NCBI GenBank assembly: GCA_019636215.1
Contig: JAHBXZ010000005.1
Location: 73,514-97,513, forward strand
Direction: 5' to 3'
DNA from: Planctomycetota bacterium
GTDB lineage: Bacteria; Planctomycetota; UBA8742; UBA2392
DNA: 24,000 bases
In this document: positions 6,912 to 23,291 of the stretch, piece by piece
How the letters are laid out: every line of letters starts with the position of its first letter
Position numbering within the stretch: position 1 is the first letter of the stretch
The notes under the pieces: model-generated
Told to the model about the DNA's origin: nothing
Databases searched by the model: none
The model's input: only the letters and a program-made list of their open reading frames with translations
Translations under genes and position numbers: made by a program

Positions 6912-8282
6912 ATGACTGACCCCGATGGCAAGCGCGTGATCCGCGTCGGCATGCTGGGTTGCGGCGTTGTCGGCGCAGGCCTGGCCAAGCTGATTGCCAA
7001 GCACAGGCCGGACTTTCACCGCAACGGTTTTGACCTGCGCCTGACCCGCGTGGCCGTTCGCGACCTTGCCAAGAAACGCGACTGCGACCTTGGCGGCGTC
7101 AGCGTCACAACCGACGTACGCGCCGTGGCTGACGCCCCGGATATTGACCTGCTGGTCGAAGTCATGGGCGGAACCGGCCTTGCCGTGGATGCCGGCTGCG
7201 CGGCACTGGCGCGCGGCGTTCCGCTGGTCAGCGCCAACAAGGCCGGGCTGGCGCGATCACTGCCCCGGTACATCGAGGCCGGCGCCCAGGGCAAGGCCGC
7301 CATCGGCCTGGAATCCGCCGCAGCGGCGCACATCCCGATTATCGAAACGCTGGAACGCAGCCTGGCCTGCGAAGAAATCAGCCTGATCAAGGGCGTGATC
7401 AACGGCAGCACGAATTACATCCTTACGTTCATGGAACGCGCCGGCTGTGAGTACCCGGCCGCGCTGGCCGATGCCGCCGCCAAGGGCTTCACGGAGGCCG
7501 ATCCCCGCCTTGACGTGGAGGGCATCGACGCCGCCGAAAAGCTGACGCTGCTGGCCTTCAAGGCCTTTGGCGCCTACGTGCCGCCGGACCGCATCCACAC
7601 CGAAGGCATCACGCGCATCACCCAGGCCGACATCCGGCTGGCCCAGGGGCTGGATCACCGCATCAAGCTGGTGGCCGCGGCGCGACGCACGCCGCAGGGG
7701 CTGAACCTGCGGGTTCACCCCGCGCTGATCCACCGCGGCGAGCTTCTGGCCGATGTGGACAGCGAGTTCAACGCCATCATCCTGGAAGGCCCGTCCTTCA
7801 ACCAGTTGACGTTCCTGGGCAAGGGCGCCGGCCAGTTGCCGACGGCCAGCGCGGTGCTGAACGACATCGTCCGCATTGTGCGCTTCCCGGCGGCAGGCAG
7901 CCTGCCCGGCTTCCTGCGGGCCGGTGCCGACAACACCCAGGCGGCGCGGGGCGGCAGCCTGGCGCTGTGTTACTTCGTGCGCATGGGCGTGGCCCAGGGC
8001 GCTGACCGCCAGGTGCTGGCGGGGCTGGGCGGACTGGGGCTGCCGGTGCTGGCACATTCTGCGGTGGACCAATCGGGCCGGCGATTCCTTGGTGTAATCA
8101 CGGACATTGTTGAAGAAAGTCGTATCCTTTCGCTGCTTCCGGAGATCGGGCGGCTGCCGGGGGTGGCAGAGGCGCCCGTCTTTATCCGGCTGGATAAGGA
8201 CAACTATCGTGACATCGTCGATCGCGAACAAAGTGCGTATTTCGGTACCAGCCTCCAGCGCCAACCTGGGCCCGGGGTTTGA
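6912..8282 (+). CDS. hom: Homoserine dehydrogenase
   Basis: N-terminal Rossmann motif 'IRVGMLGCGVVGAGL', catalytic-domain blocks 'VSANKAGLA' and 'GVINGSTNYIL...EADPRLDVEGIDAAEKL', and a C-terminal ACT-like region. Genomic context with thrB. Confidence 0.9.
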   Translation: MTDPDGKRVIRVGMLGCGVVGAGLAKLIAKHRPDFHRNGFDLRLTRVAVRDLAKKRDCDLGGVSVTTDVRAVADAPDIDLLVEVMGGTGLAVDAGCAALARGVPLVSANKAGLARSLPRYIEAGAQGKAAIGLESAAAAHIPIIETLERSLACEEISLIKGVINGSTNYILTFMERAGCEYPAALADAAAKGFTEADPRLDVEGIDAAEKLTLLAFKAFGAYVPPDRIHTEGITRITQADIRLAQGLDHRIKLVAAARRTPQGLNLRVHPALIHRGELLADVDSEFNAIILEGPSFNQLTFLGKGAGQLPTASAVLNDIVRIVRFPAAGSLPGFLRAGADNTQAARGGSLALCYFVRMGVAQGADRQVLAGLGGLGLPVLAHSAVDQSGRRFLGVITDIVEESRILSLLPEIGRLPGVAEAPVFIRLDKDNYRDIVDREQSAYFGTSLQRQPGPGV

Positions 8283-9207
8283 TTGCCTGGCCCTGGCACT
8301 GGAACTGCGCCTGACGGCCGAGGTCGCCTGGTCGGGCGACCGCGTGAAGCTGCATGACTTCACAAGCCCGCTGGCCTGGTGGGCCCAATGCGTGGCGCCG
8401 TTTCGCAGCTACAGCGGCACACTGGTGGACTTCGACGACGAACTGATCGAGAAACCCAACCTGTTTGCCGTGTCTTTCTTCAAGGCCGTGGTGAACGCCG
8501 GGCCCGAGTACAACCTGCCGGCACGGCTGGAGGCAAAGATCCACAGCGACGTGCCGATCGGCCAGGGCCTGGGCAGCAGCGCCGCGGCCGTGGTCGCGGG
8601 GGCCGCCATTGCAGAATCCTGGCGCAAGGGTGCCTATGACGCCGAACAGGTGTTCCAGGCCGCCGTTGAGATTGAAGGCCACGCCGACAACGCCGCGGCT
8701 GCCGCGTTTGGCGGCCTGCAGGCCGCCCTGTTGCAGGGTCGCAAGACGCGCGGGCGCAGCCTGCCCTGGCACTCCAGCCTGAAGGTGGCGCTGTGCGTTC
8801 CCTCTGAGACCCTGAAAGAAAACACCAGCGCCACCCGGCGCTGGCTGCCTGAAAACCTCAAGCGCACGGAAGCCGTCAGCAACCAGCGGTCTTTGTTGAC
8901 CCTGCTGTACGGGCTTGAAACCGGCGACGGCGACGCGATTGCCGCGGGCTTTGAAGACCGCCTGCACGTGCCCCACCGCAAGGCCATGATCGCGGGCTAT
9001 GAGGACATCGTGGGCACGGCGCGCGAAGCAGGCGCGTTCGGTGCAACCATCAGCGGCGCGGGCGGCAGCATGATTGCCATCGGCAACGGCGACATGGCCA
9101 AGGTGGCAGGCGCCATGGCGGAAGCCTACAGGCGCCACGGCATGGAAGCCCGGCCCATGACGCCCGAAGTCGCCAAGCAGGGCCTGAACCAGGAGCCCGG
9201 AGCATAA
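8209..9207 (+). CDS. thrB: Homoserine kinase (GHMP family)
   Basis: 'VRISVPASSANLGPGFDCLALAL' N-terminus and GHMP motif 'PIGQGLGSSAAAVVAG'. Start assigned to the GTG at 8209 (AAGGA 8 nt upstream); the GTG at 8233 is an alternative. The ORF-track ATG at 8107 would add a non-homologous Arg/Cys-rich leader. Confidence 0.85.
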   Translation: MTSSIANKVRISVPASSANLGPGFDCLALALELRLTAEVAWSGDRVKLHDFTSPLAWWAQCVAPFRSYSGTLVDFDDELIEKPNLFAVSFFKAVVNAGPEYNLPARLEAKIHSDVPIGQGLGSSAAAVVAGAAIAESWRKGAYDAEQVFQAAVEIEGHADNAAAAAFGGLQAALLQGRKTRGRSLPWHSSLKVALCVPSETLKENTSATRRWLPENLKRTEAVSNQRSLLTLLYGLETGDGDAIAAGFEDRLHVPHRKAMIAGYEDIVGTAREAGAFGATISGAGGSMIAIGNGDMAKVAGAMAEAYRRHGMEARPMTPEVAKQGLNQEPGA

Positions 9208-9216
9208 CGCAGCAAA

Positions 9217-9244
9217 CAGGAGCCCGGAGCGTAAGCGACGGGTC
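9217..9244 (+). repeat. REP-like element, short form (left flank of RAYT); preceded by a partial direct copy at 9190-9207
   Basis: Sequence identity to 9877-9904 (28/28, inverted) and 18939-18966 (27/28, inverted). 9190-9207 'caggagcccggagcAtaa' compared with 9217-9234 'caggagcccggagcGtaa' matches 17/18. Confidence 0.85.
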
Positions 9245-9303
9245 AAGTCACAATAGAATTTCACCACGCGGCAGCGCTTCCGCAAAGCCAGCAGGGCCGT
9301 GCC

Positions 9304-9822
9304 ATGGCCTTCAACCAGCCCAAGGCCTACCTGATCACGTTCACCTGTTACGGCACGCGTCTGCATGGTGACGATCGGGGCACAGTCGACGATGATCACA
9401 ACATTCACGGCACGCCTGTGCTGCCCACGAACCACGACCAGCAGGACGTTGCGCTTCGCCGGATGAACCACGGGCGTGTGTTGCTTGATGCCCCAATGCG
9501 CACGGTTGTCGACAGGACCATTCGGGGGGTCTGCGATCACCGCGGGTGGGACCTGCTTGAAATCAACGTGCGGACTAACCACGTTCATGTCGTCGTAGCC
9601 GCCCAGTCGAAACCTGAAAAAGTGATGAACGACTTCAAGGCATGGTGCACGCGCAAGCTTCGTAAGGCCGACCTCGCCAAGCCCGCAGCCACGATCTGGA
9701 CCGAACACGGCAGCACCCGTTGGCTGTTTACAGAATCCGCTGTCCGCAAGGCCTGCTTCTATGTGCGCCAGGCGCAAGGACCCGACTTGCCCTGGGTCGA
9801 AGACATGGAGGATCCGAAGTGA
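9304..9822 (+). CDS. REP-associated tyrosine transposase (RAYT) / IS200-like Y1 HUH transposase
   Basis: 172 aa. HUH motif 'NHVHVVVAA', conserved N-terminus 'AYLITFTCYGTRLHGDDRG', C-terminal Tyr context 'ACFYVRQAQG'. Flanked by inverted REPs. Confidence 0.8.
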   Translation: MAFNQPKAYLITFTCYGTRLHGDDRGTVDDDHNIHGTPVLPTNHDQQDVALRRMNHGRVLLDAPMRTVVDRTIRGVCDHRGWDLLEINVRTNHVHVVVAAQSKPEKVMNDFKAWCTRKLRKADLAKPAATIWTEHGSTRWLFTESAVRKACFYVRQAQGPDLPWVEDMEDPK

Positions 9823-9876
9823 CGCCACCTTAGGCGGGCTCGCACCCGCTTGCGCAATGCGAGTCCCCTTTGGCTC

Positions 9877-9904
9877 GACCCGTCGCTTACGCTCCGGGCT
9901 CCTG
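9877..9904 (-). repeat. REP-like element, short form (right flank of RAYT); overlaps the pcm 3' end
   Basis: Exact inverted copy of 9217-9244. The last 5 codons and TAA of pcm (9887-9904) lie inside it. Confidence 0.85.
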
Positions 9905-10537
9905 TATCAGCGGCACGAAACTCACGCTGCCCAGGTAGCTGCGATCGACCGTGCCGTCCTCGGCGCGGGTCACCAGCGTCATTTCCTGGCCTTCGCTTGA
10001 CCCCAGCGGTATCACCAGCCGCCCGCCGGGCGCAAGCTGTTCGATCAATGCGCGCGGCACCGCAGGCGCCGCCGCAGCAACCACGATGCGGGCAAACGGC
10101 GCAAACGCGGCATGCCCCAGGTTGCCGTCGGCTTCGATCACGGTTGCATTTTCGACGCCCGCGCGGCGCAGGTTCTCACGCGCAACCCGCGCGAGTTCGC
10201 CGATGCGCTCCAGCGCGTACACGTGCCTGCACAGGCGCGCGGCCACGGCCGTCTGGTACCCGCAGCCCGCGCCGACCTCGAGCAACGTCGCGCCCGGCGT
10301 AAGCGCCAGAAGCTCGGTCATCCAGGCCACGATGTAAGGCTGGCTGATGGTCTGCCCGTGGCCGATCGGCAACGGGCGATCTTCGTACGCAAAGGGCACC
10401 TGCGTTTCGGGCACGAACTCGTGGCGCCGCACACTGCGCATGGCATCCAGCACGCGCTCGTCACGCACACCGCGCGTCATGATCTGTGTTTCGACCATGC
10501 GCAGCCGCGCACGGACAATTTCGGTCTCTGAGGTCAT
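9887..10537 (-). CDS. pcm: Protein-L-isoaspartate(D-aspartate) O-methyltransferase
   Basis: 'RHEFVPE...PLPIGHGQTISQPYIVAWMTELL...LEVGAGCGYQTAVAARL' matches canonical Pcm motifs. Its ATG overlaps the upstream gene's TGA as ATGA (10534-10537). Confidence 0.9.
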   Translation of the reverse strand: MTSETEIVRARLRMVETQIMTRGVRDERVLDAMRSVRRHEFVPETQVPFAYEDRPLPIGHGQTISQPYIVAWMTELLALTPGATLLEVGAGCGYQTAVAARLCRHVYALERIGELARVARENLRRAGVENATVIEADGNLGHAAFAPFARIVVAAAAPAVPRALIEQLAPGGRLVIPLGSSEGQEMTLVTRAEDGTVDRSYLGSVSFVPLIQEPGA

Positions 10538-11544
10538 TCCTGCTTCTTGCTGTCCTGCTCGATCTTCTTGATCATTTCCAGCGCGACTTTGCCCGCGCGC
10601 AGGTCTTTCTTCAATTCGCCCCAGGTCTTCAGCGCGTTCATCAGTGTCTGGTCGCCCTGGGGTTCGCTTTTGTCAATCAGACGCTTCAGGTCCTCATACC
10701 CCTTCAGTTCGTCTTTGTTGGCCTTGTCTTTGCGAATGGCCTCAAAGGCTGCCTTGGCCTGCTTGCCAAGTTCGTGGCCCTTGAAATCTTTTTCCATCAC
10801 TTCAAGCGCGGGCATGGCCAAATCAAAGCGTTTGTCGGCCGTCCAGGCGGCAATGCGTTCATTGCGGCGCGTGGCCAGGTCTTTGGCGCGATCCATGATC
10901 AACTGCGCGGACTCGCGTTCAGAATCTGTCAGTTCGCCCGCTGCCAGCTTTTCGGCCTCTGCCAGTGCCGCACCGTATTCGCGCGCGGCGAAGCTGCGGC
11001 CGGCCTTGGCCAGCTTCTCTGCCAGCACCTGCGTTCCCAGGCCGGGGTACACCAGTTTCTTGAGTTCGCGCTGCAGCACGGTGTCGTAGTCGCCGCGGCC
11101 GTAAAACGCGACATTGCCGTCCACGCCGATCACCGTGGTGCGGTAGATCTGGTCCTCGTGCACATAGTGGCCGAAGTCGTTGTCTTCGTCATAGAAGCCG
11201 CCCATCGGCACGCAGTAGGTGATGCCTTCGGCCTTGCAGTAGTGGTGCAGTTCGCGCGGCGTTTCGCGCAGGCGGTGCACGGCAAACACCCAAAGTCCCT
11301 TGCCGCCCCAGGTCTTGAAAGTAGAGGCAAGCTGCGAGGCGATCTTGCGAGAATCAAGGTCCTTGACGTTCCATTCCAGCACGACGATCACGTCGCCCTT
11401 GCAGTCGTCCAGTGTGCGATGAAACTCGTAGGGGTTCACCAGCCGCCCGCCGGCCTTGAACTTGGGCGCGGGCTGGCCGACAACAACCGTGCCCGCGCAC
11501 AACGGCGCGGCCAGCAGCGCAAGCAATGCAACCAGAAAACGCAT
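10534..11544 (-). CDS. Secreted thioredoxin-fold (TlpA/AhpC-like) protein lacking the CXXC motif, with a C-terminal Lys/Glu/Ala-rich helical domain
   Basis: Signal peptide 'MRFLVALLALLAAPLCAG'. It aligns without gaps to the neighbouring paralog across the redox region, but reads 'EWNVKDLDSRK' where the paralog reads 'YWGTR(TGA)GPCVK'. Both share 'YPGLG' and the helical tail. Confidence 0.7.
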   Translation of the reverse strand: MRFLVALLALLAAPLCAGTVVVGQPAPKFKAGGRLVNPYEFHRTLDDCKGDVIVVLEWNVKDLDSRKIASQLASTFKTWGGKGLWVFAVHRLRETPRELHHYCKAEGITYCVPMGGFYDEDNDFGHYVHEDQIYRTTVIGVDGNVAFYGRGDYDTVLQRELKKLVYPGLGTQVLAEKLAKAGRSFAAREYGAALAEAEKLAAGELTDSERESAQLIMDRAKDLATRRNERIAAWTADKRFDLAMPALEVMEKDFKGHELGKQAKAAFEAIRKDKANKDELKGYEDLKRLIDKSEPQGDQTLMNALKTWGELKKDLRAGKVALEMIKKIEQDSKKQE

Positions 11545-12839: not shown

Positions 12840-14885
12840 ATGGCACTAGTCACTTTAGATGGCATTTCTGTGCATTTTGGCGGCCCGACCTTGATGCAGC
12901 GGGTCAGCCTCGACATTGAGCCCGGCCACAAAATCGGCCTGATCGGCCAGAACGGCACCGGAAAATCGACCCTGCTCAAGATGATTGTCGGCGAGGCCGA
13001 GCCCACCGACGGCCGCATCGTGCGCCAGCGCGGCCTGAACGTTGCCTACCAGGCCCAGGAGTTGCGCTATGAACCCGGCGCCACGGCCTTTGAGGAAATG
13101 CGCCGGGTGTTCACGCAGGACCTGCAGCGCCAGCAGCGCCTGCACGAGATTGAAGAAGCCCTCGCCACCGCCGACGCCGACGAACGCCCCAAACTGCTGG
13201 CGCACTACGACAAGTTGCAGGCCGAGCACGACGCCCGCAGCGGCTATGACGTGGACCGGCGCATCGGGACGGTGCTGACCGGCTTGGGCTTGCCCGAGAA
13301 AGCGTGGACGCAACCCATTGCCAGCTTCAGTGGTGGCGAACGCAACATCATCGGGCTGGCGCGCATTGTGCTGCAGGAACCCGAGCTGATGCTGCTGGAC
13401 GAGCCCAGCAACCACCTGGATATGGAGGGCATAGAGTGGTTCATCAGCTTCCTGCGCCAGACGCGCGCAGCCGTGGTGATGGTCAGCCACAACCGCCACC
13501 TGCTGGATGCCACCGTGGACCAGATCTGGGAGCTGCACGGGCGCAAGATCACGCAATGGACCGGCAACTACAGCGATTTCGCGCGCCAGAAGCAGGAGGC
13601 GCTGGCGCTGCAGGAACGCCAGTTCAAATCGCAGCAGCGGCTGATCAAGCGCATCCAGTTCCAGGCCCGCCGCCTTCTGGATATGGCCAAGGCCTATGAC
13701 GACCCCGGCCAGGCCAAGCGCGCCAAGGCGATGCTGCAGCGCATTGAACAGATGGACAAAGTTGAGGCCCCGGACAAAAGCGAACACCGCTTTCACGCAA
13801 ACCTCAGCGGCGCCAGCCGGCACGGGCACATCGCGCTGGAAGTGTCGGGGTTGACAGTCGCAGTTTCAGCCCGGAGCGCAAGCGACGGGGTAGTTGCCAT
13901 CAGCCCCGAATCTGCGCCGCAACGCATCCTGTTGAACGCCGCCAATCTCGAAATCCACTTCGGCCACCGCGTGGCGCTGGTCGGCCCCAATGGCTCGGGC
14001 AAGACCACGCTGTTCAACGCGATCCTGCGTCACGCCAGTTGGGACAACCCCGACATTGACGTGCAGGACGGGCCGTTTCACATCAAGGGGCGGCTGCGCG
14101 TGGGCAAAAGCGCCAAGATCGGCGACTACAGCCAGATCCACGACCAGAAGCTGCCCCACAACGAAACGCTGATCACCTGGCTGATGAACGTGACCGGCCT
14201 GCGCTTTGAGCCCGCCAGCGCGATGCTGCACCGGTTTCTGTTCAACCGCGACGACCTCGAGCGGCCCATCGGCACGCTAAGCGGCGGCGAAAAATCGCGC
14301 CTGCAACTGGCGCGGCTGGTGCACGAGAAAGTCAGCTTTCTGATGCTGGATGAACCCACCAACCACCTGGACATCCAGGCCTGCGAACAGCTTGAAGAAA
14401 TGCTGGAAGAGTACGAAGGCACGCTGCTGGTGATCAGCCACGACCGCTACTTCCTGGACAAGCTGGTCAATCGCGTCGTGGAACTGAAAGACCAGCAGCT
14501 TCAGGTGTTTGAGGGCAGCTTCGCGCAATGGTGGCAGCAGCGTCACCAGCAGGCCCAGGAAGGCCGCAAGGGCGCGCTGCAACTGCACAGCCAGGCCAAG
14601 GCCTTTGAGCAATCCGCCGGTGCCGCGCAGCGCGAAGCCCAGAAGGCGCACCAGCGTGAACAACACCGGCTGCGTACGCAGATCAAGGCCATTGAAGGCA
14701 AGATTGAAAGGCTCGAGGCCAGGCAGAAAGAACTGGAGCAGAAGCTGGCCGAGGCCTTCAGCGCCCAGGGCACCCAAAGCGCGCACGAGGCCGCGCACAT
14801 CCACGCGGCCTTCGAGGCCACAAGAAAAGAAATCGCCGACCTGTACACCGAATGGGAAGCATTGGCCGAGGCGGTGGAGGGGTAG
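12840..14885 (+). CDS. ABC-F family ATPase (two ABC domains and a C-terminal coiled coil), carrying an in-frame REP-derived insert in NBD2
   Basis: Walker A 'GQNGTGKST' and 'GPNGSGKTT', signatures 'FSGGERNII' and 'LSGGEKSRL', Walker B 'LMLLDEPSNHLD' and 'FLMLDEPTNHLD'. No TM segments. Gln/Glu/Arg-rich helical tail. Confidence 0.9.
   Translation: MALVTLDGISVHFGGPTLMQRVSLDIEPGHKIGLIGQNGTGKSTLLKMIVGEAEPTDGRIVRQRGLNVAYQAQELRYEPGATAFEEMRRVFTQDLQRQQRLHEIEEALATADADERPKLLAHYDKLQAEHDARSGYDVDRRIGTVLTGLGLPEKAWTQPIASFSGGERNIIGLARIVLQEPELMLLDEPSNHLDMEGIEWFISFLRQTRAAVVMVSHNRHLLDATVDQIWELHGRKITQWTGNYSDFARQKQEALALQERQFKSQQRLIKRIQFQARRLLDMAKAYDDPGQAKRAKAMLQRIEQMDKVEAPDKSEHRFHANLSGASRHGHIALEVSGLTVAVSARSASDGVVAISPESAPQRILLNAANLEIHFGHRVALVGPNGSGKTTLFNAILRHASWDNPDIDVQDGPFHIKGRLRVGKSAKIGDYSQIHDQKLPHNETLITWLMNVTGLRFEPASAMLHRFLFNRDDLERPIGTLSGGEKSRLQLARLVHEKVSFLMLDEPTNHLDIQACEQLEEMLEEYEGTLLVISHDRYFLDKLVNRVVELKDQQLQVFEGSFAQWWQQRHQQAQEGRKGALQLHSQAKAFEQSAGAAQREAQKAHQREQHRLRTQIKAIEGKIERLEARQKELEQKLAEAFSAQGTQSAHEAAHIHAAFEATRKEIADLYTEWEALAEAVEG
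13861..13918 (+). repeat. REP-like element, long form, inside the ABC-F coding sequence
   Basis: 'cagtttcagcccggagcgcaagcgacggggtagttgccatcagccccgaatctgcgcc'. It matches 55/58 to the reverse complement of 15151-15208 and shares the core with the short-form REPs. Confidence 0.85.
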
Positions 14886-14930
14886 GGCGTTGCGCGGGTA
14901 ACCGCAAGTGGCCAACAGCAGCCCACACGT

Positions 14931-14955
14931 CAGCCCGGCCTGCAAAGGCCGGGCC
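14931..14955 (+). repeat. 25-nt hairpin element CAGCCCGG-NN-TGCAAA-NN-CCGGGCC (may also terminate ABC-F transcription)
   Basis: 'cagcccggcctgcaaaggccgggcc': 8-bp stem, 6-nt loop, 46 nt after the ABC-F stop. No strong T-tail. Confidence 0.45.
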
Positions 14956-15087
14956 TTCGGAACGCCCGATTTCGAATCACGAATGCGGGTCGGGCGAACA
15001 ACCGCAACCGGGTAGAGACCGACGTAGCTGGCGACCGCCATCCGATCGCGTTGGGCGGCCACACTTGCGCGACCTGCATTGTGACGA

Positions 15088-15112
15088 AGGCCCGGGGTTT
15101 GCACCCCGGGCT
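15088..15112 (-). repeat. Inverted second copy of the 25-nt hairpin element
   Basis: The reverse complement reads 'cagcccggggtgcaaaccccgggcc'. It is identical to 14931-14955 except cc->gg and gg->cc, paired changes that keep the stem intact. Confidence 0.45.
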
Positions 15113-15150
15113 GACGCGGGAACATCGGCTTGTGATGGTTGGGCGCCCTT

Positions 15151-15208
15151 GGCGCAGATTCGGGGCTGATGGTAACTACCCCGTCGCTGACGCTCCGGGC
15201 TGAAACTG
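15151..15208 (-). repeat. REP-like element, long form, intergenic; inverted mate of 13861-13918
   Basis: 'ggcgcagattcggggctgatggtaactaccccgtcgctgacgctccgggctgaaactg' matches 55/58 to the reverse complement of 13861-13918. Confidence 0.85.
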
Positions 15209-15232
15209 CGGGGCTTCTGTTTGCTCCTTGGG

Positions 15233-16384
15233 CTACTTGGCCCCTGCGGCGATGGTTTCCTGCCACTTGGCCGGGATTGCGCTGACGGGCCGGATGTAGC
15301 CCAGGCTTTCCATGGTTTCGCTGTCCTGCAGCACTTCGGTCGGGATGCCCGCGAACTCCCAGCGCGCGTTGACGGCCGTGCCGCCACTGTTGCCGGCGCT
15401 GATCAGGCAATCGCTTTTCAACCACTGCAGGCGGCCCTTGCGTTCCACAAACCCGCTTACCACGCCGCGGGTCAGGCTGATGCTGCACAGGCTGCGCGCG
15501 CCGCCAATCGCCGGGTAACCGATGCAGCGGAGGTCGTCGTCCAGTTCGGGCTCGGACCTGGCCAGCGGCAGCCAGGTGAAGTTCGGCTTCTCGATCGGTT
15601 TGCCGTCAAGGTCGGCCACAATCTGCACCATGGCAAGGTCCAGCGCCTTGTCGCTTGCCACCAGCTTTGCCAGGTGCGACTGGCGCGCAACCTGCCGCGG
15701 GCTGTGGGTGAAGCTGACATAGATGCCCTCGCTGACCGGCTGGTCGTTGTCGTCGGTCAGCACGTGCAGGCAGGTGACAATCAGCCCGCCGGGAGTCACC
15801 ACCGTGCCGCTGCCTGTGCCGAACTCCGTGTCCAGCCGCACGCAGGCATCCAGCGCGCGCTGCATGGGCGCAAGCCCGGCCATGGCGCGAAAGGGCGCAA
15901 CGGCGGCGCGGGCCGCTTCGGGCGGCTTGTCGAATGTCAGCGTCATGGTGAACGTCAGTTCTTCTTCGGCCTCGGCCACCAGGCTGCCGGCGTACACCCA
16001 CCACTTGCCGGGCTTCAGCGGCGGCTCGGTGGTGGCGTCCAGCATGACTGTTTCGTTCACGCGGGGCGTCGTGCGGTCCAGCACGGCACGGTCGGCAAGG
16101 TCCTCATAATCCTTGGCCTTGCTGCCGCGCAGCAGAACCATGTCGATGTCGGCGTTGGCGTCGCTGACCACAAGGAACATGCTTTTGGCGTCACGAGGCA
16201 CCTCAAACGAGAACCCCTGCAGAATCGCCGTATCGGCGGGCAATGTGACTTCCGCGGGTGTGCCGGCCTTGAGTTCCAGTATGGCCTCGGCCAGTTTGAC
16301 CTGCGCCACTTCGGCGTCCTGCGTCGCGGCCACAATCGAGCCGCCAAGCAACATCGCCGCCATCGTCAGTGCCAGTGTGCGCAT
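15233..16384 (-). CDS. Secreted trypsin-like (S1 family) serine protease with an N-terminal pre-peptidase-like beta domain
   Basis: Catalytic-triad contexts 'VTCLHVL' (His), 'DLAMVQI' (Asp) and 'AGNSGGTAV' (Ser). Signal peptide 'MRTLALTMAAMLLGGSIVAA' with GGAGG 6 nt upstream of the ATG at 16384. Confidence 0.8.
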   Translation of the reverse strand: MRTLALTMAAMLLGGSIVAATQDAEVAQVKLAEAILELKAGTPAEVTLPADTAILQGFSFEVPRDAKSMFLVVSDANADIDMVLLRGSKAKDYEDLADRAVLDRTTPRVNETVMLDATTEPPLKPGKWWVYAGSLVAEAEEELTFTMTLTFDKPPEAARAAVAPFRAMAGLAPMQRALDACVRLDTEFGTGSGTVVTPGGLIVTCLHVLTDDNDQPVSEGIYVSFTHSPRQVARQSHLAKLVASDKALDLAMVQIVADLDGKPIEKPNFTWLPLARSEPELDDDLRCIGYPAIGGARSLCSISLTRGVVSGFVERKGRLQWLKSDCLISAGNSGGTAVNARWEFAGIPTEVLQDSETMESLGYIRPVSAIPAKWQETIAAGAK

Positions 16385-18822: not shown

Positions 18823-18874
18823 GGGTTCTGGGTTCTGGGTTCTGGGTTCTGGGTTCTGGGTTCTGGGTTCTGGG
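18823..18874 (+). repeat. Heptamer microsatellite (GGGTTCT)x7 plus GGG
   Basis: Perfect tandem copies counted directly, giving eight GGG runs with 4-nt spacers. It starts 9 nt after the sfsA stop. Confidence 0.95.
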
Positions 18875-18910
18875 CAGCAGTCACGAAGGGGTAGGCTGTA
18901 GTACCAGTGT

Positions 18911-18938
18911 CCGATTCCCGATTCCCGATTCCCGATTC
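18911..18938 (+). repeat. Heptamer microsatellite (CCGATTC)x4 (GGGAATC-phased on the minus strand)
   Basis: Perfect tandem copies counted directly. It directly abuts the REP copy at 18939. Confidence 0.95.
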
Positions 18939-18966
18939 GTCCCGTCGCTTACGCTCCGGGCTCCTG
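18939..18966 (-). repeat. REP-like element, short form, immediately after the murJ stop
   Basis: 'gtcccgtcgcttacgctccgggctcctg' matches 27/28 to 9877-9904. Confidence 0.85.
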
Positions 18967-20820
18967 TCACGCCCCTCGCCGCTTGCGCAGGTTCAGGGCC
19001 TGCTCGACCTCCGGCGCGCGCAGCGCCAGGCTCAGGCCGCCATAGATCACCACTCCTGCCAGCACACCCGCGCCCACGCTCAACAGCAGGCTCCAACGCC
19101 CGGTCAGGCCGAACTTGCCTGCCAGCCCCAGCTGGATCGCGTAAGCCCCTGCCCCCATCACGCAGGAAACCAGCAGCGCGCGCAGGATGCTGCGCGGGAT
19201 CTCGCGCACTTTGCTGGGGCTCATGGGCTGCGCCAGGCGCTCGCTGGTGGCCGGCACAGCAGCCGCGCGCAGGCTTTCCAGTACGGTGCCGCGCAGCCTG
19301 CGCTTGAGATACCAGATCATCATCGCCAGGTTGAGCGCGCCGGAAATCGCCGTGCCCAGCGCCAGCCCGGCCTCCTTCAAGGGTGTCTGAAGCAGAATCA
19401 CGTTGGCCACCAGGTTCACGGCCACACAAACCAGTGCCAGGCGCGTAGGCGTGCGGTGGTCGCGCAGCGCATAGAACGCCTTGGTCAGCAGGCTCTGGAC
19501 GCTGACAATCGGCAGGCTCACACACAGCATCACCAGCACCAGCGCCGAACGCTGCAGCATGGCCGGGTCACTGTTGCGCCCGCCGAACAGCAGGCTGGTG
19601 ATCGGCAACGCCAGCGCCGCAAGACCGGCCGCGGCCGGCAGGGCCACAAAGGCAATCAGGCGCGCGCTGTTCAGCAGGCTGGCAGTGAACTTGTCCAGTT
19701 CATTGGCCGCGGCAAACCGCGACATCAGCGGGAACATCGCCGTGCCCAGCGCCACACCCACCAGCCCCAGCGGAAACTGAAACAGCCGCGTCGCGTACGC
19801 GTAACTTGCCACAGCGCCGTCGCCCGGCACCAGCAGTTCGGCCAGCAACTGGTCGGCAAAGGTGTTCACCTGAAACACGGCCAGCGCAAACAGCATCGGC
19901 GCCATGGCCTTGAAGGTCTCGCGCAGGCCGGGTTCGCCCAGTGCCAGCCGCGGGCGCGAAAGCAGCCCCACCCGCTTCAGGTCCGGCATCTGCAGCAGCC
20001 ATTGCGCCATGCCCGAAACCAGCACGCCGATCGACATGACGATGATGGCCATGTGCGGCTGGTCGCGCAGCGGCGACAGCAGCAGGCCCACCAGCACCCC
20101 CACCCAGATCAGGTTGGCAATCGCCGGCGTGATGGCCGGCAGGCCGAAGCGGTTCCAGCAGTTCAACGCCCCGGCCTGCAGCGCCGACAGGCAGATGAAG
20201 ATGACATACGGCAGCAGGATCGACAGGTACTGCCGGAACGCCGCAAACTTCACCGGGTCGCCAAACCAGCGCGCCGGCACCAGCCACACCATCGCCAAAG
20301 ACAGCACACACACAACGCCCAGCCCCGCGGCCAGCAGAAACGCCATGGTGCCCAGCAGCCGCTGCGTGGCCTGCATGTCGCCGCGCAGGCGGTAACGGGT
20401 CAGCACCGGGATCATCGCGCTGGAAAGCGCGCCCTCGCCGAACAGCTTGCGGAACAGGTTGGGGATGGTGAAGGCAATGAAAAACGCGTCAATCTCGCGC
20501 CCGAACCCGAACAGCATGGCCGTCAGCACGTCGCGGGCCAGCCCGCTGACCCGGCTGACCAGCGTGGCCAGGCTGATCACCATGGCCGAGCCCAGAACAC
20601 CCCGCGCGGGCGCGACAACCCGGGCCGAACGCTGCTCTTCCTCGATGCGGACGGAATCGGCCGCGATGTCACCCGCCGAAAGGCCCTCCGAAACGGCAAC
20701 CGGACCAGCCGCCTGGGGCGTCGGGTCCGGTTGGGGAGATGTTTCAGCCATGGGCGTGCTCTTGCGGGTGGCATGGCCGCGAGGGCCGGGCAGACACATC
20801 GGCGCAGACGCCGATGCCAC
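18967..20820 (-). CDS. murJ: Lipid II flippase MurJ (MviN family)
   Basis: 'SRVSGLARDVLTAMLFGFGREIDAFFIAFTIPNLFRKLFGEGALSSAMIPVL' is the canonical MurJ N-terminal block, followed by about 14 hydrophobic segments. The start is uncertain: GTG 20820 is the longest, with ATGs at 20799 and 20751 as alternatives. The first 70 aa or so are non-homologous and Pro/Ala-rich. Confidence 0.85.
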   Translation of the reverse strand: MASASAPMCLPGPRGHATRKSTPMAETSPQPDPTPQAAGPVAVSEGLSAGDIAADSVRIEEEQRSARVVAPARGVLGSAMVISLATLVSRVSGLARDVLTAMLFGFGREIDAFFIAFTIPNLFRKLFGEGALSSAMIPVLTRYRLRGDMQATQRLLGTMAFLLAAGLGVVCVLSLAMVWLVPARWFGDPVKFAAFRQYLSILLPYVIFICLSALQAGALNCWNRFGLPAITPAIANLIWVGVLVGLLLSPLRDQPHMAIIVMSIGVLVSGMAQWLLQMPDLKRVGLLSRPRLALGEPGLRETFKAMAPMLFALAVFQVNTFADQLLAELLVPGDGAVASYAYATRLFQFPLGLVGVALGTAMFPLMSRFAAANELDKFTASLLNSARLIAFVALPAAAGLAALALPITSLLFGGRNSDPAMLQRSALVLVMLCVSLPIVSVQSLLTKAFYALRDHRTPTRLALVCVAVNLVANVILLQTPLKEAGLALGTAISGALNLAMMIWYLKRRLRGTVLESLRAAAVPATSERLAQPMSPSKVREIPRSILRALLVSCVMGAGAYAIQLGLAGKFGLTGRWSLLLSVGAGVLAGVVIYGGLSLALRAPEVEQALNLRKRRGA

Positions 20821-23097: not shown

Positions 23098-23119
23098 ACC
23101 GACCCGCCAACAGCCCTTT

Positions 23120-23226
23120 CAGCCCGGAGCGGCAGCGACGGGGTAGTTGGCCGCTGACTACCCCGTCGCTCTAAACGCAATGCGTTTCCGCGCGACCGTC
23201 GCTTCGCGACCTTCCGCTCCGGGCTG
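23120..23226. repeat. Inverted REP doublet (REPIN-like nested hairpin) between convergent genes
   Basis: Outer arms cagcccggagcgg (23120-23132) / ccgctccgggctg (23214-23226) are exact complements. Inner arms agcgacggggtagt (23134-23147) / actaccccgtcgct (23157-23170) form a perfect 14-bp stem. An extra palindrome aaacgca-a-tgcgttt lies at 23172-23186. Confidence 0.75.
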
Positions 23227-23291
23227 ACACTGCTGTGCTTGCGGCCAACCGGGCACGGACGGCGGGCCAGAGGCCCGCGGTCCGAACTCCC

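Follow-up and report, generated by a model that had tools for sequence, protein, structure and literature searches.

An in-frame REP-family repeat in an ABC-F ATPase gene of a planctomycete that carries a RAYT-type transposase

How does a repeat of an extragenic family come to be translated inside a conserved ATPase, and does it do anything there? The question is raised by a 24,000-nucleotide stretch of DNA from an uncultured Planctomycetota bacterium (assembly GCA_019636215.1, contig JAHBXZ010000005.1, positions 73,514 to 97,513), which we analysed at its full length and refer to as the window. It encodes an ATP-binding cassette (ABC) protein of the ABC-F family, and 20 codons in the second nucleotide-binding domain (NBD2) of that protein are supplied by a member of a repetitive extragenic palindromic (REP) family. 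We consider this REP unit to be tolerated selfish DNA, a passenger that is neutral, or almost so, in a loop of ABC-F that is permissive and hypervariable, in a host that has a system of REPs and a REP-associated tyrosine transposase (RAYT), and would put the probability of this reading at about three in four.

The ABC-F gene and its in-frame repeat

The ABC-F gene occupies positions 12840-14885 (+) and codes for a protein of 681 amino acids. Pfam recognises two ABC_tran domains, ABC_tran_Xtn and ABC_tran_CTD, the NCBIfam model ribo_prot_ABC_F scores 420.9 bits (cutoff 380), and the protein is 100% identical to P0001, named 'ABC-F family', from a Planctomycetes metagenome-assembled genome (MAG). 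It has the features by which the family is defined, namely two complete ABC domains and a linker with no membrane domain, along with a C-terminal coiled coil, and its ATPase motifs are complete in both halves (GQNGTGKS and GPNGSGKT for Walker A, SGGE twice for the signature, LLDEP and MLDEP for Walker B, SHNR and SHDR for the H-loop).

A repeat search of the window identified two inverted arms of 60 nt, 13859-13918 and 15151-15210, which are complementary at 57 of 60 positions (95%) and separated by 1232 nt. An earlier note on this DNA, made from its letters, had described them as 58-bp inverted repeats matching at 55 positions, and had placed the first in frame within the ABC-F gene. The repeat is confirmed, its arms being longer by one base-pair step at either end, and so is the placement: the first arm falls inside the sole long open reading frame (ORF) of the region, and the Pfam and NCBIfam domains agree with its assignment. 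A 29-nt piece of the unit was matched three times in the window, where shuffled sequences gave an expectation of 0.00. The unit in the gene (13859-13918, +) amounts to exactly 20 codons, read as AVSARSASDGVVAISPESAP (A341-P360; AVSARSASDGVVAISPESA(P) in the context of the ORF). Three of its six frames are open, two of them forward, and translation follows one of these two. The suggestion that the frame in use avoids TAA and TAG in the others was therefore right as regards the third forward frame, which is closed by TAG, but not as regards TAA, which is absent from the ABC-F copy.

The unit consists of one full REP core, GCCCGGAGCGCAAGCGACGGG (13869-13889, +), which is a small imperfect hairpin of the form CCCG-GA-GC-GCAA-GC-GA-CGGG, together with a 3' extension. 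The ends of the unit (CGCAGTTTC and GAATCTGCG) are complementary at 8 of 9 positions; identification as a miniature inverted-repeat transposable element was nevertheless rejected, as a direct reading of the sequence found neither copy to be flanked by a target-site duplication.

To compare strains, we made use of an independent contig, L081 (Logan SRR36362362), assembled from another sample, which is 99% identical to the window over the locus (123 differences in 12,117 nt). The ABC-F protein that it encodes is identical, insert included: all 25 differences in the ORF are synonymous, and 12 of these fall 3' of the insert. An identical protein and synonymous-only differences exclude a pseudogene, and they equally exclude an assembly artefact, which the earlier note had named as a possible refutation. 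We conclude, on this sequence evidence, that the ABC-F gene is intact and under purifying selection and that the insert is fixed in the two strains. L081 ends at about window position 14956, short of the second arm and within the repeat-rich spacer 3' of ABC-F, indicating that the repeats of the spacer limit short-read assembly.

The REP family and its transposase

The core GCCCGGAGCGnnAGCGACGGG is present at six sites in the window, 9222 (+), 9879 (-), 13869 (+), 15180 (-), 18941 (-) and 23122 (+); for a 21-nt core, 0.02 matches would be expected in 24 kb. All six copies fold alike over 20 nt (CCCGGAGCGnnAGCGACGGG), giving a 4-bp stem that continues, past a GA/GA mismatch, into 2 bp closed by a 4-nt loop. 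The family thus has the dispersed copies and the short imperfect palindrome that are expected of REPs. The copy in ABC-F is not extragenic, since it is fully intragenic and translated; two further copies overlap the 3' ends of genes and give the stop codon, and the remaining copies in the window are intergenic. Two subtypes can be told apart. The first, ACAGGAGCCCGGAGCGTAAGCGACGGG, has copies starting at 9216, 9871 and 18934, the last of which (18934-18967, -) adjoins an array of heptamers. The second, TTTCAGCCCGGAGCGnnAGCGACGGGGTAGTT, has copies starting at 13864, 15174 and 23117. GTAG stands 3' of the core in this second subtype (the copies at 13869, 15180 and 23122) and is missing from the first; neither has a GTAG or CGTC tag on the 5' side.

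The copy of the ABC-F subtype at 23117-23149 (+) (TTTCAGCCCGGAGCG..AGCGACGGGGTAGTT) is 94% identical over 33 nt, and its 3' part is a perfect hairpin. It runs into a near-perfect 17-bp hairpin, AGCGACGGGGTAGTTGG / CTGACTACCCCGTCGCT (23133-23169), past the stop codon of a short-chain dehydrogenase gene, and the 81-nt stretch that holds it gave a folding z score of -3.77. Nearby, at 23215-23233 (-), is a partial inverted copy of the 5' end of the 60-nt unit (18/19). No match to Rfam was found in the whole window at the gathering threshold, or at E<=1 in 13700-15400.

That these repeats are REPs in more than appearance is indicated by a gene for a Y1/HUH transposase of RAYT type (172 aa; 9304-9822, +), about 4 kb from the unit in ABC-F. 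The ORF scores 35.9 bits against Pfam Y1_Tnp, the IS200-like HUH transposase family (cutoff 23), and has an HxH motif (H93/H95) and a candidate catalytic tyrosine, Tyr153. It is flanked by inverted REPs, 9216-9250 (+) on its 5' side and 9871-9905 (-) on its 3' side, which are 94% complementary. Homologues in two unrelated metagenome contigs, L179 and L160 (phmmer E values of 7e-32 and 1.8e-34, respectively), are flanked by the same REP core; that of L179 is flanked by inverted cores as in the window, that of L160 by two cores in direct orientation, and H93, H95 and Y153 are invariant in an alignment of the three. A large protein database held 422 homologues, from Planctomycetota, Acidobacteriota and others, and many of them, at 44-55% identity, have been named 'REP element-mobilizing transposase RayT' by JGI. 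Inverted REPs around a Y1_Tnp gene are the defining architecture of RAYTs, and the label REP, which the earlier note had proposed and which the copies of the core bear out, is therefore right in a strict, mechanistic sense. We conclude that the window repeat is a true REP with an associated transposase of RAYT type.

The insertion of the RAYT gene is confined to the lineage of the window (window 9216-9905 against L083 6839-7039): in the 88% relative L083, the GHMP-kinase and PCMT genes are separated by a 189-nt spacer with a solo REP and no RAYT gene. Both of these neighbouring genes end in QEPGA* derived from REP sequence. For the GHMP kinase (8107-9207, +) it comes from a truncated copy at 9189-9207 (+), and for PCMT (9887-10537, -) from the part of the copy 3' of RAYT that lies at 9887-9905, which gives the last codons and the TAA stop; this TAA belongs to the GTAA loop of the repeat. 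L083 has kept the REP at the end of PCMT (7020-7039).

Copies of the core also occur in the relatives L083, L004 and L082, and a scan of metagenome contigs found it in at least 120 stretches. Among the matches listed, about half of the cores are paired with an inverted copy (median spacing 10 nt), in the manner of the REP doublets termed REPINs, and the GC content of the loci that bear them ranges from 0.44 to 0.76. In five metagenome genes the core is in frame, with Pfam domains on both sides of it or spanning it: those for a PrmC methyltransferase (L201 546-1481), a PSD1/DUF1553 protein (L135 5703-8249), a class-I aminoacyl-tRNA synthetase (L193 1533-3977), a cysteinyl-tRNA synthetase (L147 42-2306, -) and a helicase-like protein (L136 6570-10484, -). 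The family proves to be widespread among environmental bacteria, and some caution is needed in annotation, as the REP-derived peptides ARSASDG, EPGAxATG, SPERxRR and QEPGA* turn up in many predicted proteins.

A variable loop in NBD2

In order to place the insert in the protein, we examined an AlphaFold2 model of ABC-F built on 65 orthologues. The mean predicted confidence (pLDDT) was 87.5. It can be seen that residues 341-361 are modelled with low confidence (block means of 65 and 56, and below 50 at 352-354) and are found between strands 331-342 and 362-373 (beta1 and beta2), immediately ahead of the strand and helix of Walker A in NBD2. The low pLDDT between two strands supplements the inverted-repeat search and the frames as a basis for the unit. 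The earlier note had put the insert between 'IALEVSGLTV' and 'RILLNAANLEIHFGHRVALVGPNGSGKTT', just before the Walker A strand of NBD2, and this placement is confirmed; its question whether the insert is a surface loop is answered by the model in the affirmative, albeit at low confidence.

Orthologues that have no insert have the loop FAYGD at this point. The aromatic residue of this loop, which precedes Walker A by about 23 positions, is taken here to be the A-loop of ABC ATPases. Throughout the clade of the window the position is a valine (V342, 13863-13865), whether an insert is present or absent, and in outgroups it is Y or F; the binding of adenine at ATP site 2 may be different in the valine clade.

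The loop was then compared across an alignment of 60-65 orthologues, with a neighbour-joining tree computed without it. The outgroup orthologues all have a 5-residue loop. In about 40 closer orthologues it has 9-59 residues, the inserts standing at exactly the same site and being unrelated in sequence. Three other kinds of insert are seen in the five closest relatives (80-88% identity), and the types are patchy on the tree. For example, P0020 has no insert where its sister P0016 has a block of 87 nt, the two genes being 88.6% identical in DNA, and the inserts of P0010 and P0014 are wholly different at 91.4% nucleotide identity. The insert has been lost altogether in P0020, P0024 and P0027-29, sublineages nested among insert bearers. 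As the roughly 40 closest orthologues carry inserts, the REP unit of the window entered or replaced a segment that was already expanded and fast-changing. A comparison with NBD1, by which the earlier note had implied that the loop was short and pristine beforehand, is for the same reason misleading. Orthologues with an equivalent segment of similar sequence would, according to that note, have refuted its reading, and half of this is found: an equivalent segment does exist, but it is unrelated in sequence except for a diverged REP core in one orthologue, L082.

Most of the orthologue inserts are DNA hairpins in which the two arms are built of tandem heptamers complementary to each other, the heptamer differing from genome to genome (for instance GGGCATN...CCCCATG, GGGAGTC...GACTCCC, GGCGGCA...TGCCGCC and GTGCGGA...ACGCCGC). 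Such heptamer-hairpin inserts are located at L205 11013-11105, L207 11020-11087, L208 1061-1158, L013 11027-11154, L015 11039-11272, L083 11025-11111 and L084 11020-11099. Folding compared with shuffled sequences gave z scores of -7.1 for L082, -6.1 for L083 and -4.5 for L015. Planctomycete loci totalling 440 kb contained 25 period-7 arrays, and 15 of these fall in the ABC-F loop. The insert of L082, whose ABC-F is 67% identical, opens with the diverged REP core ACCCGAAGCGTGAGCGAAGGG at the codon offset and in the frame seen in the window, and this form of the core recurs in another relative, L083, which has two copies. There is no evidence for lateral exchange of REP-type inserts between the window and L082, identity in the flanks being 0.72 and 0.68 against 0.71 for the whole gene. 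Among the orthologues sampled, only the insert of the window has clear extra copies in its own locus of about 20 kb (blastn-short and 11-mers); k-mer controls in this search were confounded by orthologous genes and were not used.

These comparisons raise the possibility, which we advance tentatively, that the beta1-beta2 loop of NBD2 is a dedicated hotspot, a translated counterpart of the bacterial interspersed mosaic elements (a 'translated BIME'), where hairpin DNA, in the form of REPs as well as quasi-palindromes with heptamer arms, would arise, insert and be replaced time and again, always in frame, with a turnover faster than about 10% nucleotide divergence. Were this true, either single-strand hairpin elements like those of the RAYT/REP system would target a pre-existing intragenic hairpin, or selection would keep some mRNA or DNA hairpin, of any sequence, at this point of a translation-factor gene.

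Arrival and effect of the insert

The explanation that we favour for the arrangement starts from a planctomycete that hosts a REP/RAYT system, in which a small palindromic repeat is mobilised in trans by a tyrosine (HUH) transposase acting on single-stranded DNA. The ancestral loop would already have been an expanded, hairpin-bearing segment, probably both permissive and attractive to an element that targets hairpins. A REP unit would have landed there, either moved by RAYT on single-stranded DNA or copied as the template switched from one hairpin to another, so that a 60-nt member now occupies what is predicted to be the solvent-exposed tip of the beta1-beta2 hairpin of NBD2, just past the A-loop position. 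Because the unit amounts to 20 codons with no stop in the frame used, and the loop is solvent-exposed, the protein would have stayed functional and the insertion would have been kept as a passenger that codes for a disordered loop of 20 residues. The role given here to RAYT is what we infer, as are neutrality and which of the two 60-nt units was copied from the other.

Several observations weigh against this reading. The RAYT ORF scores only 23.6 bits with the NCBIfam model REP_Tyr_transpos, below the cutoff of 80, and a PDB sequence search with it found no significant solved relative. There is no GTAG 5' of the hairpin, unlike in classical REPs, and the unit in ABC-F lacks the symmetry of a REP doublet (REPIN), generally regarded as the form in which REPs move. 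The unit folds no better than shuffled sequences (z of about 0), and we do not claim a stable hairpin for it. No target-site signature separates transposition from gene conversion. Finally, the insert is immediately adjacent to the position of the A-loop, which binds ATP; a valine has already taken the place of the aromatic residue there, and an effect on site 2 is possible.

The most serious alternative, although we regard it as improbable, is that the insert arrived by templated repair or gene conversion: with the template switched between hairpins separated by 1.2 kb, a hypermutable quasi-palindromic loop would have been overwritten from the nearby REP, or else the downstream copy would have been derived from the gene. 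The nearest copy is indeed the best match of the unit, whose left end CGCAGTT resembles the ancestral CGAAGTT and might have provided microhomology. Both junctions are identical across the orthologues, the loop concentrates period-7 arrays as noted above, and most of the heptamer hairpins of orthologues are without a second copy in the roughly 20 kb of locus around them. However, the subtype has a third copy 9 kb away and is therefore dispersed, a RAYT is present, and elsewhere the core is found in frame in unrelated genes.

Less probable again is that the insert, or the hypervariable loop as such, is adaptive, a disordered loop beside ATP site 2 that tunes ATPase activity or the interaction with the ribosome. 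It could be argued in favour of this that some insert has been kept in about 40 orthologues, that it adjoins the A-loop position from which the clade has lost the aromatic residue, and that the insert is fixed in two strains in a gene under purifying selection. Against it, the inserts share no conserved sequence, are modelled with low confidence and have been completely lost in the nested sublineages named above, and their composition tracks the DNA hairpin (a Gly/Ser/Glu-rich arm and then a Pro-rich arm) and not a protein motif.

The earlier note had proposed that the inverted pair might form a long-range structure in the mRNA or mediate an inversion severing NBD2. The mate (15151-15210, -) is extragenic, between the convergent genes for ABC-F and a trypsin-like peptidase, 266 nt past the stop codon of the former and 23 nt past that of the latter. 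The spacer between the two genes measures 348 nt and also holds a second pair of hairpin repeats, 14925-14959 / 15085-15119 (CGTCAGCCCGGCC-TGCAAA-GGCCGGGCC), which are 88% complementary, begin with CGTC and may be a CGTC-tagged REP family. An arm length of 60 nt at 95% identity would suffice for RNA pairing in a read-through transcript or for RecA-dependent recombination, which would invert 13919-15150 and switch ABC-F off. From the ABC-F stop to the mate, a simple scan of the + strand detected no intrinsic terminator, although the promoter and terminator scan was uninformative. Nevertheless the gene is collinear with all its orthologues, and the 3' kb differs between the strains only by the synonymous changes described above. 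The pair is absent from relatives, those at 88% identity keep the gene without it, and the arrangement is conserved in no other locus. In addition, the 20 ORFs scanned include no recombinase or invertase other than RAYT, and no Rfam match was obtained. We therefore think it very unlikely that the pair acts in either way; the mate is in all likelihood simply another copy in an ordinary extragenic REP place and not a functional partner. As for a repeat-induced assembly chimera that placed the REP in the gene, MAG assemblies do break at such repeats, as L081 does at about 14956, but this can be discounted almost entirely given the identical insert and protein in a 1% divergent contig from another sample, the preserved frame, and flanks that align to orthologues on both sides.

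REP/RAYT systems, including REPtrons and REPINs, have been described in Proteobacteria and other phyla, reportedly by Nunvar (2010), Bertels & Rainey (2011) and Ton-Hoang (2012), and by Di Nocera (2013, PMC3733652). The system in the window resembles them in having a dispersed short imperfect palindrome, mostly just 3' of genes and often in inverted doublets, a Y1/HUH gene between two inverted REPs, and REP ends that give neighbouring genes their stop codons. It differs from them in that a text search of papers did not find the core sequence (or any paper on planctomycete heptanucleotide repeats), that GTAG is 3' and limited to one subtype, that the RAYT falls below the NCBIfam cutoff, and that the unit in ABC-F is a single core with an extension in place of a symmetric doublet.

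Intragenic, in-frame REPs have already been listed in several phyla (Di Nocera 2013, PMC3733652), including the Rickettsia palindromic elements (RPEs) and cases in Opitutus terrae, Thauera, tRNA synthetases, uvrA and Xanthomonas recB, so the kind of event is known. As with those elements, an in-frame palindrome of about 20 residues is found here in a conserved, apparently functional protein, alongside non-coding copies; the planctomycete host and the ABC-F target are different. Different REPs at about the same recB site in two Xanthomonas species (PMC3733652) provide a small precedent for a hotspot, whereas many unrelated hairpin inserts in one loop across about 40 orthologues, with replacement even between genes 89-91% identical, are a reuse of a site on a scale that is not described there. 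Enterobacterial BIMEs likewise combine a fixed position with a number and type of REP-like hairpins that vary between close relatives, but they are extragenic and the mosaic here is translated.

The REP in ABC-F is in our judgement a clear further example of a known event, and the loop that may be a hotspot is the more interesting part. The former is a clean case, open to verification, in which selfish palindromic DNA is translated in a conserved gene under selection in a host that is neither a Rickettsia nor a proteobacterium, with the RAYT that we hold responsible for its arrival encoded in the same window. The latter, a loop beside an ATP-binding element that keeps acquiring unrelated hairpins, amounts to a natural experiment on how a protein absorbs junk DNA; it also bears on whether hairpin elements home to existing hairpins, and marks a permissive site for the engineering of ABC-F proteins.

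Heptamer arrays are not confined to the ABC-F loop. Cyanobacterial short tandemly repeated repetitive (STRR) sequences are heptanucleotide tandem repeats, and both the orthologue inserts and positions 18823-18938 of the window resemble them by description in being tandem, G/C-rich heptamers; unlike STRR sequences, the arrays of the inserts form complementary hairpin arms and lie in frame in a gene. Those of the window, after sfsA, are perfect, (GGGTTCT)x7.4 at 18823-18874 and (CCGATTC)x4 at 18911-18938, and the second abuts a REP core. Similar arrays stand directly past the ABC-F stop codon in L015 (12240-12343). In L083, a (TTCCCGA)x3.7 array (8764-8789) falls inside a called gene (7675-8853, -) whose product has 392 aa compared with 336 aa for that of the window (10534-11544), possibly through an in-frame repeat insertion or a mis-called start.

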